Source of the DNA: Octopus vulgaris
Lineage: Eukaryota
Length of the DNA stretch: 64,000 bases
Direction of reading: 5' to 3'
Assembly: GCA_951406725.2 (NCBI GenBank)
Contig: OX597820.1
Span: forward strand, 58,900,001 to 58,964,000
Part shown: in pieces, positions 7,752 to 32,182 of the stretch
Numbering within the stretch: position 1 is the stretch's first letter
Layout: every line of letters begins with the position of its first letter
Program-made: the position numbers and the translations under genes
Notes under the pieces: model-generated
The model's database searches: none
Told to the model about the DNA's origin: nothing
The model's input: only the letters and a program-made list of their open reading frames with translations

Positions 7752-7825
7752 CTATGCTGATGATCTTGCAGATGTTTGCGTGTTCATACACGTAAATATT
7801 AACAAGTGAAACCAATGGTACATAG
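7752..7825 (+). ncRNA. Type I hammerhead ribozyme motif, canonical core
   Basis: CTATG-CTGATGA-(T CTTG...CAAG T)-GAAAC-CAATG-GTA-CATAG: stem I CTATG/CATAG, GUA cleavage triplet. Confidence 0.8.
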
Positions 7826-8054
7826 GTAATTGTTTATTATTTCGTATATTTTCATTTGTCTTGCTTATTTTTACATTTTGTTTTTTGTCTTTTTGCTGAG
7901 ATTTTTCTTGAGAAAACATTCTTTGTGGTAATGGCGATTTGACGTCTATGTTTAGTGGTCAGTCCTCTAAATTTTGAATGTAAAACAATTTTTAATCTTC
8001 GGATTTAAAAAAAATATGCTAAGCCACTGGTTTTAATCGATTAATATCAATTTC

Positions 8055-8478
8055 GGATCTTTTCGGTTTGAACGGCAGTTTTTTAAAATAATTTCCACGT
8101 AACTAAACACTTTTAAACTTCGTATACTGGTAGAATGTGTTTATAAAACATCTTTTTCTCTTGGCTTTATTGAGAAAATTCTATAGTTTGTAAGATATTT
8201 GTTGCTGTTTTTTCTTCAATTTCTGCAAATTCAACCAATCAATGACGTCTATTGAGGTAAAAAAAACAATCTGTACCGTATGAATATGTCCCTCATTTAA
8301 GAAACAGATTGGGTTTATCTACATTTCGGAAGAAAAAAGATACTCTTCCCCCCACCCTTAACCATAGCCCTAACCCTAAAACAGATTGAAATGCAATAGA
8401 TCAATACTAGGATCATAATTATGGGTGACAATTTCATGACACCGCAAGAAAAAACTGCCGGTCAAATCGAAAAGATCC
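8055..8478. mobile_element. MITE with 8 bp target-site duplication
   Basis: TIRs GGATCTTTTCGGTTTGAACGGCAGTTTTTT / AAAAAACTGCCGGTCAAATCGAAAAGATCC; TSD TCAATTTC at 8047-8054 and 8479-8486; mirrored copy at ~20000-20422. Confidence 0.85.
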
Positions 8479-9503
8479 TCAATTTCTACCCTTATTCAAT
8501 TTTAAATAAAAAAATGTTCTCTAACCGGTAAATTGACTGCTGTAGTTTATTAACTGCAGGGTAGTTTCCGATCTCAGCGTGCCAAAGTGAAGACATTTGA
8601 AAGATACACTTAAATATAATTTGTAGAACTTTATACATACAGATCCATCTGCAAGATGAGCATTATTTATAATTCAATGGTACAACACTGTAAGAGTTTG
8701 CTTTGAGATATACTTAGATTTACCCTGTTTGACAACTATTGGAAATAAACAAACATAGGAGTCCCTACATGGTTGCTTAACCTACTAGAAATAGCAGCCA
8801 CATATCACACTACTATCTTAAAATAAAGGCAGGACACATTGGTTAAAATAGACCTATGTATGGTATACCCAAAGATATGTCATGAGCGGAAATGCCTGTG
8901 ATCGTAGGCTGATCTGAGGCTAAACACCTCCTATAACAACCATCAAAAGCATTTCTTACCATTTGCTGTTGTTGTTTACCCCAAGATTAGCCACGATCTG
9001 CTAACCTATGATAAAAGATATTTTAACCATGACCATCCCAGGCTACATAATCCTATGTCTTTTTTGTTTTCAATGGCAGTGTGTGAGTTTAGAGAAAATA
9101 TCAGGTTATGTGAACACGATCTTGTTCATGATCAGGCGGTCCTATTGTTAAAGACATTATGTCAAGACTTTTTTTAGATGTAGAAATGTCATATTTTATG
9201 TCTTTTCTTTGTTTTGTTTAGCCAAGTAGGTGCAGACGTGACACATCAACACGTGCATTCCAACTATAAACACACCTCTTTTTATCTTATTCTACACAAC
9301 GTATCTGGGAAAACATTTCTCAATGTGCCTTTCTTTTTAAGACGATAGTGTGATTTGACGAAGAGTAGCCAAACACCACCACCACCACCAAATTGTCACA
9401 CAGAAGACAGTTACTAAGTCTACATTGTAGAGTTGTGAATACAACCAACAACTTCAAAAGACAGAGATATATTTGCATAGCAAGTATTTTTATCTCTACA
9501 CTC

Positions 9504-9660
9504 GCGGAGTGGTTGGCGTTAGGAAGGGCATCCAGCTGTAGAAACACTGCCAGATCTGACTGGGCCTGGTGCAGCCTTCGGGCTTCCCAGACCCCAGTCG
9601 AACCGTCCAACCCATGCTAGCATGGAAAGCGGACGTTAAACGATGATGATGATCATCATC
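9504..9660 (+). mobile_element. Retroposon 3' end with (GAT)n tail
   Basis: GGTTGGCGTTAGGAAGGGCATCCAGCTGT...GGACGTTAAACGATGATGATGAT; a diverged independent copy lies at ~39650-39806. Confidence 0.6.
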
Positions 9661-9959
9661 ATGTGCTGAAACTAAAGCAATTGCAAAAGACACAAGCTAG
9701 CCATTCAGAAATGCACAAAGACTGTTTTCTTCACTAAAACATTTACTTGTAACATGGCGACAAATTTTTCGTTGCTTGAAACTGCGATCTGTTCACTGAC
9801 AAAAAAATTCTGCTGCATCAGAGAATAGCATTTCTGTCAGTGGCGGCTCATGTGTAGGCACTGCAGCACCCCCTATTTCCACTCGATATTATTGATAACA
9901 TTCAATTTCTTTCTTTATACATGTACGTTATATAATCCTTAAGATTTAAAAGATTTTTT

Positions 9960-28819: not shown

Positions 28820-29020
28820 GGCGCAATGGCCCAGTGGTTAGGGCAGCGGACTCGCGGTCATAGGATTGCGGTTTCGATTCCCAGACCGGGCGTTGTGAGT
28901 GTTTATTGAGCGAAAACACCTAAAAGCTCCACGAGGCTCCGGCAGGGGATGGTGGTGATCCCTGCTGTACTCTTTCACCACAACTTTCTCTCACTCTTAC
29001 TTCCTGTTTCTGTTGTACCT
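28820..29020 (+). mobile_element. tRNA-derived SINE
   Basis: A box TGGCCCAGTGG (28827-28837), B-box-like GGTTTCGATTCCC (28870-28882), followed by non-tRNA body. Confidence 0.7.
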
Positions 29021-29054
29021 ATATTATATAAATATATATATATTGTTTATGTTT

Positions 29055-31230
29055 TCCAGTTTCAGCTCTTGAGCTGTGGCTATGCTGGGGCACCGCCATT
29101 TGGTGTTGCTACATGATTTTACCTCACGAATGCTTTTTAGCAACTTCCATTTGGTGTATGAGCGAGTTTGATGCAGCTGCCCTCATCTGCACCTCCTGCC
29201 GTGAAGTTGGTTCATCCTGGACACCTGACAGGAAGAGATCCAGTCCTACTTTAAAGACATCCGCATCCACCCCATGCAGGTCCCTCAGGTTCTTCGGGAG
29301 GATATTGAAGAGCTGTGGGCCTCGGAAGCCCAGGCTATCACAGTATCTGATGGCAAATTTGGAGTCCTTGGCACCACGCAGTGGCGCCCAGTTCTGGCAT
29401 TTGTGTAACTCTCGATGCCAAAGTTTGGGACAATTCCTTCCAGGATCTTCCAGATGTATATTATGGCATATCTTTCTCGCCTACGCTCCAAGGAATAGAG
29501 TTTTAATCTCTTGAGTCTTTCCCAGTATCTTATAAGCTGCACAGAGGCTATCTTCTTCGTGTAGCTTCGTTGGATCGCCTCAAGTTCTGTGATCAACTTG
29601 ACACTGGATGGTGACCATAGCTGAGAGCAACAGTCAAAGTGGCTTAGGACAAGTGTCTTCCAGAGGACCATCATGGTTTCTTGTTCTCTTGTTCTAAAGG
29701 TTCTAAGAATCCATCCGGCCAGCCGTCTACATTTCATTGCCAGTTTAGCAACATGTACATGAAAGGTTGCGTCATCGCTCATGTAAATACCCAGGTCACG
29801 CACTGATCGTGCCTTTGGTATTACGATCCCTCCGGGTCCAGTGTATTCATTGGGTATTGCATTCAGTCTTGCATGCTGATAGCATAAAGCTTGAAACTTT
29901 TTAGCATTGAACTGCATGCTATTCTTTTCAGCCCACTTGTATATTTTGTCCAGCTCACATTGCAGGTGCTTAGTGTCTTCAGGGTTCTGTATTGCCTGTG
30001 AAACTTTTGTATAATCTGCATAACTTGTGATCGTGGCTCTCTGCGTGGCTGAGGGCATGTCTGAGAGGGCCATTATGAACAGTAGTGGTCCCAAAACAGT
30101 GCCCTGCGGAACACCGCTCACTATTTGCATGTTAATGGAAGTGGCCCCATTGGCTACTACCACCTGACTTCTATCCTTCAGAAAGTCATGAAGCCATTCT
30201 CCCAATTTTCCAACTATGCCAAGATCACGCAGTTTGTTACATATCATTCCATGGTCGACTTTATCAAAGGCCTTTGCAAAGTCGAGATATATCACTTCCA
30301 CATTTGAGTGGTTGAGCAGTCGTTTCAGCACCCAATCATAGTTTTGTAGGAGCTGAGTTAAGCAGCTTCTTCCTGGTCAGAAACCATGTTGGGTGTCAGG
30401 CAGCAAGTCATTTTCTTCAAGGAAGGTGATTAGTTTCCTTATTACTATTCGTTCCATGACCTTGCTGATGTGTGAGGTCAGAGAGATAGGTCTGTAGTTC
30501 TTGGCCTCCGCTCTGCTACCTCCTTTATGAATAGGGCATATTTTACCTTCCTTCAGTTTTCTTGGAAGTTTGCCAGTTGCAAGGAAGCTCTGAAAGAGAA
30601 ACTGCAGTGGTCTTGCTAGTACTCTCTTACATACTTTTAGAAGGATTGCCGGGAATCCATCGGGACCAGTAGCTGAGTTTGTTTTCATCTCATCTATAGC
30701 CTTTATTACATCGTCTTCCTTTATATTGATGTAATCAATCATCGCCGCCTCTGACCCCATATCTGCAGTGGTGAAGAAGTCAGTTGGATTGCTGATTTGG
30801 AAATGCCCAAGGGGTGGGGTGAAAACACTCTTGAATTGCTCATTTAGTATTTCACTTACCCTCATTGGATTTCCTGTGAGTGTGCCATCCCTTTCAAGGA
30901 GTGGCCCTATCCTACAGTGCACCGTAGCTGTTTCTTTGGCATACCTGTAGAAAGCTCTGGGGTTAGATTTTATGTTGTCTATAGCCCAGGCTTCTTTGTC
31001 TGCTCTTTCCTTTTCATGGGGGAGTTGCAGACATTTTTCAATTTCCAACAGTTTTATTTTCAGGCGGGACTTTTCACTGTTTTCAATTTGTTTGTTTAGG
31101 CGATTTGAGATTTTGTACGCCGTCTCATTAGAATTTTCCTCTCTCTGGGGATTTTGTTCTTGTGTACAGTGGCCTTTCTCTCTGGGACACATTTGTAGCA
31201 TATGGCTTGCATTACAGGCGGTATATATAT
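29055..31230 (-). mobile_element. 5'-truncated, degenerate CR1-type LINE
   Basis: ORFs 30377-31201 (KNYRPISLTSH, QHGF) and 29285-30331 (YLDFAKAFDKVDH, SGVPQGTVLGPLLF, YADY for YADD, LERRRER). Confidence 0.88.
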
Positions 31231-31905
31231 TTGCAAAGGAGCCTTCACTTTCATCGCTACCTGGTGGTTACCGCCGGTTGACGAGGGACAACAATCCCGA
31301 AACTAGTTCGAGCCTATCACTCAGGCTTGCGAGGAAGGGATGGCCTCCCTTTGCACATACTCCAAGGACATAGATATTGTGTCTAAAGCGAGCTAGAGAC
31401 GAAGATCTCTTGGGGCTATAAAGCTACAGTAACACCCCCTCCCCAATGTGGTTAGCCATGATAAGATGGCTTCTATACTTTACATTATTGAGCGATTACT
31501 GTTTCAATCTCATTCTGGGATTAAATTATGCCTATATATATATATATATATATATATATATATATATATATATATATATATATATATATATATATATATA
31601 TATATATATATATATATATATATATATATATATATATATATATATATATATATATATATATATATATATATATATATATATGTAAATATATATATATATA
31701 TATATATATATAAATATATATATATAAATATATATATATAAAATATATATAATATATATATATATATAAATATATATATATTTATATATATATTTATATA
31801 AATATATATTTATATATATATATATATTTATAAATATATATATTTGTATATATATATTTATATATATATATTTATATTGGTATATATATATTTATATACA
31901 ACAAC

Positions 31906-32182
31906 AATTGCAGCGTGGAAGGTGTTTATAAGCCATTTAAGAAACACACAAAAGCCGTTCGATTCACTTCAACATTTAAATTTAATTTGTCAAAATATTT
32001 TCGTCGCTAAAATCCGCGACCTGTTCACTGACAAAGTCCGTGCAGCACGGACTTTGTCAGTGAACAGGTCGCGGATTTTAGCGACGAAAATATTTTGACA
32101 AATTAAATTTAAATGTTGAAGTGAATCGAACGGCTTTTGTGTGTTTCTTAAATGGCTTATAAACACCTTCCACGCTGCAATT
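31906..32182. repeat. Perfect palindrome (138 bp arms, 1 nt spacer at 32044) with a hammerhead-like motif in each arm
   Basis: AATTGCAGCGTGG...CCGTGC A GCACGG...CCACGCTGCAATT; flanked by (TA)n; ~60 bp one-sided extension. Confidence 0.92.
32053..32102 (+). ncRNA. Hammerhead-like motif (G3-C8 variant); mirror copy at 31986-32035(-)
   Basis: TTTGTCA-GTGAACA-G-GTCGC GGATTTTA GCGAC-GAAAA-TA-TTT-TGACAAA then ATTAAA. Confidence 0.55.

Follow-up and report, generated by a model that had tools for sequence, protein, structure and literature searches.

The stretch analysed here (hereafter the window) comprises 64,000 nucleotides of the Octopus vulgaris genome (GenBank assembly GCA_951406725.2, contig OX597820.1, positions 58,900,001 to 58,964,000 of the forward strand) and contains four motifs, H1 to H4, that have the topology of type I hammerhead ribozymes and each belong to a dispersed repeat family (Table 1). 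In all four, an open stem I, a core of the form N-UGA-N-N-A, stem II, GAAA, stem III and an NUH triplet build a three-way junction. These motifs had been proposed from the letters of the window (the sequence-only reading), and a type I descriptor that allows any Watson-Crick pair between residues 3 and 8, composed with the motifs already in view, recovered every one of them, giving 13 matches in the window, whereas 60 dinucleotide shuffles averaged 0.07. Eight of the matches have C-G at 3-8, three U-A and two G-C, with no non-pairing combination; all belong to the four families, and many are inverted arms or duplicates within a segmental duplication. We conclude that H3 and H4 are almost certainly homologs of the hammerheads found in the pseudo-long terminal repeats (pLTRs) of Penelope-like elements (PLEs), H3 with U-A and H4 with G-C at 3-8.

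The proposed core sequences, CUGAUGA (H1), CUGAAGA (H2), UUGACAA (H3) and GUGAACA (H4), are correct, but the positions that accompanied them mark the beginning of stem I, and the cores start further in. The palindromic or near-palindromic sequences of stem III are as described. In H3, a stem I of six base pairs belongs to the copy at 28536; that at 16916 has only three. A(A/T)TAAA does follow three motifs, but in two of these it overlaps the last base of stem I instead of lying directly after it. Stem II is closed by the G10.1-C11.1 pair in H2 and H4 and by U-U in H1 and H3, and U occupies the cleavage position 17 in H3 and H4. Inverted-repeat hairpins hold H2 and H4, and the minus strand carries another copy of each.

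Table 1. Hammerhead-like motifs and associated elements in the window (positions count from its first letter)
Feature	Positions	Strand	Details
H1, C3-G8	7752..7825	+	core 7757-7763; long stem II with U-U closure; near-palindromic stem III; predicted cut after A7820
H1, other copies	cores 45586, 20738, 58697	+, -, -	
H3-element inverted 5' arm	11688..12974	-	broken H3 copy near 11774
H3-element open reading frame, 5'-truncated	12975..14576	+	reverse transcriptase, CxxxxCxxC linker and GIY-YIG; PF00078 E 7.6e-8, PF01541 E 3.3e-5
H3-element 3' region/pLTR, microsatellite-rich	14577..17005	+	ends about 50 nt past the predicted cut site; colinear with loci L061 and L062
Short H2-family insertion, 5'-truncated and 5'-inverted, in a (TA)n tract within the H3 element	15273..15810	+	hairpin 15273-15435/15491-15653
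H2, inverted-arm copy	15336..15415	-	core start 15412
H2, C3-G8	15511..15590	+	core 15514-15520; 3-bp stem I; long stem II; palindromic stem III; predicted cut after A15587
H3, U3-A8	16916..16960	+	core 16922-16928; U-U stem II closure; palindromic stem III; U17 at 16954; 3-bp stem I
H3, second copy	28536..28580	+	core 28542-28548; 6-bp stem I; U17 at 28574; in solo pLTR fragment 28038-28625
Short H4-family insertion in a (TA)n tract	31903..32239	+	inverted arm 31903-32047; sense part 32041-32239
H4, inverted-arm copy	31986..32035	-	core start 32028
H4, G3-C8	32053..32102	+	core 32060-32066; bulged G and 5-bp G-C-rich stem II; AU-only palindromic stem III; U17 at 32095; 7-bp stem I

H3 lies on the sense strand 3' of an open reading frame (ORF) that joins reverse transcriptase (RT) and GIY-YIG domains, and the same order is repeated at two other loci. 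The ORF is 98% identical to that of locus L061, and the 3' ends of H3 copies cluster 84 nt from the core. Furthermore, locus L310 has the tandem arrangement pLTR-ORF-pLTR, in which an H3 motif is followed by a frameshifted ORF (481 + 776 aa) and, 5.8 kb on, by a second H3 motif. The state of the 3-8 pair in the H3 and H4 families was counted by exact core-pattern matches across the 2.8-Gb genome. U3-A8 is present in 813 of 831 H3 matches, the rest deviating at U3 (5) or A8 (13), and none of these 18 is a C3-G8 version; reversed-pattern controls gave 0 matches. At locus L222, a relative of H3 differs in stems I and II but retains U3-A8 and an identical stem III. CpG decay as the origin of A8 was ruled out, because U3 as well as A8 is fixed throughout the family and the pair occurs in several families. 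At least four more U3-A8 hammerhead-like families occur among the collected loci (L111, L158, L222).

Among 30 collected H4 loci, one had the end of a GIY-YIG ORF upstream of the motif; the protein from this locus then served as a query, and 30 ORF-picked loci of the 150 listed were analysed. In all 30, a sense-strand G3-C8 motif lies about 930-1140 nt after the ORF stop, 28 of the motifs being intact by the descriptor. The open frames reach 1,025 aa and match GIY-YIG (PF01541); the Pfam RT model is unmatched, and the assignment of an RT comes from a YVDD motif and the names of homologs. This element is a second, young PLE, distinct from the H3 element; the RTs of the two are only 23-25% identical, over short stretches. 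G3-C8 accounts for 5,534 of the 6,024 exact-pattern matches of H4, whereas 324 have G3 with another base at 8 and 166 another base at 3; no C3-G8 version occurs among the 100 of these 166 that were listed. The H4 core shows no variant at or above 8% in contigs of four sequencing runs with four organism labels, and no relative of the H4 ORF was confirmed in a metagenome scan. Since they rest on whole-genome counts for H3 and H4, the swapped 3-8 states are family states carried by master copies and not the decay of single copies. The sequence-only reading was also right that such hammerheads escape CUGANGA-based searches, as about 6,300 exact-pattern copies do.

Some features of single H4 copies deserve mention. 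C8-to-G is unexpectedly common among the deviant copies even though it is a transversion (e.g., L225, L229, L235, L236, L212, L213, L216). G3-G8 as an ancestral intermediate or a subfamily was rejected, such copies being scattered on a 57-sequence tree and not forming one clade; a local relationship seems apparent for three C16 loci that have G3-G8, and the two arms of one H4 hairpin differ, one having C8 and the other G8. A putative 3' splice site (a branch-point-like motif and a pyrimidine tract ending in AG) lies 20 nt upstream of the H4 core at L180:539-566 (minus strand). Among 35 pattern-picked H4 copies, 15 start at this putative site, 17-24 nt upstream of position 3, and 4 extend at least 55 nt. 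The site recalls the Penelope element of Drosophila virilis, whose intron ends adjacent to stem I (PMC4209133; here and below, published work is cited for the parts of each paper that were covered). Older, decayed H4-family copies at 9799, 18679, 43579, 47630 and 56641 of the window retain G3-C8.

The best single covariation comparison comes from a sister PLE of the H4 element, found by the protein query P0002 and 54.7% identical over 815 aa. The motif at the homologous position has C3-G8 in 28 of 30 loci, and, from its alignment with H4, C3-G8 against G3-C8 is a true double change. The two also differ by paired changes in each stem, from U-A to C-G in stem I, from G-C to A-U in stem II and from A-U to G-C in stem III. 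With the counts for H3 and H4, this double change upholds the family-level complementarity of residues 3 and 8 that had been proposed. The sister family is young and abundant, its ORF being present in at least 150 near-identical copies, and it also forms tandem arrays; in L305-L307, direct-repeat pLTRs surround ORFs of about 1,310 aa, the tandem units lying 4,587 bp apart.

Two further samples were scanned, the first of which bears on whether the non-canonical motifs could be chance look-alikes in AT-rich repeats, amplified by transposition. A blind sample of 79 evenly spaced 10-kb stretches (790 kb), scanned with a strict descriptor, gave 11 matches (7 C-G, 2 U-A, 1 G-C and 1 U-G) against 0.5 in shuffles, an excess of about 20-fold in unselected DNA. 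In a larger sample, 1.43 Mb of collected loci, 223 matches were grouped into 28 families, of which 19 have C-G, 4 U-A, 1 G-C, 2 U-G, 1 C-A and 1 G-U. Watson-Crick 3-8 pairs thus occur in 24 of the 28 families against 16.1 expected (permutation p 6e-5, with kinship among families ignored). The descriptor was composed after the motifs had been seen, shuffles do yield a few false matches (1.5 expected per 1.43 Mb), and an Rfam scan of the window returned no hammerhead family at E<=5, all of which would suit coincidence. The Rfam test, however, is insensitive to these forms, because even the canonical-core H1 and H2 go unmatched. Besides, the motifs stand on the sense strand near the element 3' end, as described for PLE hammerheads, and the C3-G8 motif with compensated stems at the homologous position of the sister family largely refutes a chance origin, which we therefore regard as very improbable.

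Residues 3 and 8 of the hammerhead pair in the catalytic core and hold the 2'-OH of residue 8, the general acid, in place; a pair is needed rather than particular bases. Because the 3-8 pair itself positions this group, G-C and U-A can replace C-G, and the G3-C8 motif of H4, as predicted from its sequence, would likely still cut itself. We propose that tandem pLTR-ORF-pLTR units would be transcribed, that two palindromic stems III would pair, and that cleavage after residue 17 would rely on G12 together with the 2'-OH of residue 8. Cutting would be slow, likely proceeding in dimers or assisted by the protein that the element encodes, and selection likely keeps the 3-8 pair whatever its letters. 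The short hairpin copies in the window would then likely be truncated, inverted insertion products and not working units. The sequences, the family-wide fixation, the sense-strand position downstream of RT/GIY-YIG ORFs and the paired changes in the sister family are the observations behind this proposal. As a whole, with minimal type I hammerheads cutting PLE transcripts and the 3-8 pair kept by selection, it seems to us fairly probable.

Several observations weigh against this mechanism. In the sister motif, the conserved A9 is replaced by C (L307:3611-3660; also L275-L306), so either A9 is dispensable, or the sister family thrives and spreads without a working ribozyme. The tandem H3 copy at L310 is a U3-G8 variant, and when non-C8 copies of H4 were listed, about 42 among the first 100 had G3-G8, as counted by eye. 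No direct-repeat pLTR pair surrounds the H4 ORF in the long copies examined. The stems are weak: stem II of H3 amounts to -1.1 kcal/mol, the minimum-energy folds of H2 and H3 differ from the hammerhead fold, and the computed stem III homodimer of H4 has only -0.2 kcal/mol in isolation, compared with -8.2, -10.3 and -8.3 kcal/mol for H1, H2 and H3, respectively. The permutation test takes no account of kinship among families, and uniformity within a family reflects copying from few masters and is itself no sign of selection. Furthermore, hammerhead mutants of one PLE still transposed in vitro (PMC11167929).

Several of these points would also fit motifs that derive from hammerheads but no longer need to cut, being either folded RNA signals (for protein binding, RT start, splicing or the 3' end) or products of slow drift, the 3-8 pair being kept for structure or by inheritance. 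The anole PLE inserts in vitro without cleavage and shows no RNA-seq ends at the cut site (PMC11167929), and Naiad PLEs have spread without canonical hammerheads (PMC8557442). Such a loss of function would nevertheless have to account for the retention of UGA (4-6), GAAA, U16.1 and a non-G residue 17 across families with wholly different stems, and for a pair in the catalytic core that remains paired through a double transversion; besides, the C3G/G8C double mutant made in the laboratory retains part of the activity. We therefore consider dispensable cutting unlikely, and self-cleavage of PLE transcripts the better account of H3 and H4.

PLE hammerheads and their U3-A8 swap are already known, so the novelty attributed to the non-canonical cores had been overstated. 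Minimal type I hammerheads in PLE pLTRs have been described by Cervera & De la Peña (2014, PMC4209133), with U3-A8 in Schistosoma Cercyon PLEs (about 1,300 matches). Natural U3-A8 covariation, together with a U10.1-U11.1 closure of stem II, was reported by Perreault et al. (2011, PMC3088659), making the U-U closure of H1 and H3 a tolerated natural variant. The octopus motifs resemble the PLE hammerheads of PMC4209133 in type I topology, short palindromic stem III, short stem I, an extra base before stem II, frequent U17, inverted close pairs and mostly solo truncated copies. They differ in the much longer stems II of H1 and H2 and in the U-U closure of H1 and H3. The H3 and H4 ORFs share a C-terminal GIY-YIG and an upstream CX2-5CxxC linker with Neptune/Nematis-type endonuclease-containing (EN+) PLEs (Craig et al. 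2021, PMC8557442), as they do (TA)n targets and inverted 5'-truncated arms.

The G3-C8 pair stands apart. The covered alignment parts of PMC4209133 have no G3-C8 row and no cephalopod row, and the covered section of PMC3088659 does not name G3-C8; the variants in the latter are rare, whereas thousands of copies in a young family share the H4 swap as their fixed state. Cleavage is partly restored by engineered C3G/G8C, including in a PLE hammerhead whose cutting depends on the PLE protein (Frangieh et al. 2024, PMC11167929); partial rescue is also given in a review (PMC8495972), and the engineered mutant in PMC3884650. These are laboratory constructs, whereas the same swap is the natural state of the H4 family. 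A natural G3-C8 hammerhead was not found in the literature searched, which gives the swap only as an engineered mutant and omits Lünse et al. 2016 and one supplement of PMC4209133. We are thus dealing with a known system that includes one probably undescribed natural variant. Only tentatively would we regard H4 as the first G3-C8 hammerhead to be found working in nature, its catalytic 3-8 pair having undergone a double transversion that became fixed in an animal retrotransposon in the course of active spread. If so, swapped-core hammerheads would form a large class unseen by CUGANGA searches and may exist in PLE clades said to be without hammerheads. Descriptors in print overlook thousands of motifs per genome. 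With a natural G3-C8 family, its C3-G8 sister and several U3-A8 families side by side, this one genome provides a natural series in which to ask whether selection maintains cutting in PLE hammerheads.

The link to PLEs drawn in the sequence-only reading is observed for U3-A8 (H3) and G3-C8 (H4); for the C3-G8 motifs H1 and H2 it is indirect. Their sequences suggest that they, too, likely occur in PLE pLTRs, since inverted 5' arms and (TA)n targets fit PLE insertions (PMC8557442). No parent element of H1 was identified, and no linked sense ORF lies within 1.5 kb of H1 or H2 in 30 top-scoring loci (L145-L174). Because a colinear copy at L061 is without 15280-15810, the H2 hairpin is a later insertion into the H3 element. 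Relatives of H2 with changed stems occur in the random sample. Sense-strand scans behind nine other PLE ORF fragments found a motif in one. A(A/T)UAAA follows the motif in 6 of the 28 families (by eye, against a 3% background) and was rejected as a general feature. DNA searches gave 929 (H1), 1084 (H2), 1426 (H3) and 919 (H4) first-look candidates.

The window is rich in microsatellites, and its Rfam matches are weak ones of microRNA type, on hairpins and microsatellites. For one of the elements, the nearest homolog that bears a name is an Octopus protein. No tandem array with hammerheads, as for non-LTR retrozymes, was found in the window, the copies being dispersed or inverted. A near-identical segmental duplication (6845-26042 versus 44661-64000, 98-99%, about 15 kb) may be in part an assembly artefact, and more copies of it lie on the same contig, about 150 kb upstream and just downstream. 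A long ORF at 22036-27204 (+), with a copy from 59994 and one interrupting stop, is presumably a Helitron-like Rep/helicase. We take the ORFs at 1087-2589, 29285-31267 and 34224-37291 to be RT/endonuclease frames of long interspersed element type, and the repeat at 28814-29025, also present in loci L036, L041 and L054, to be a tRNA-derived short interspersed element.

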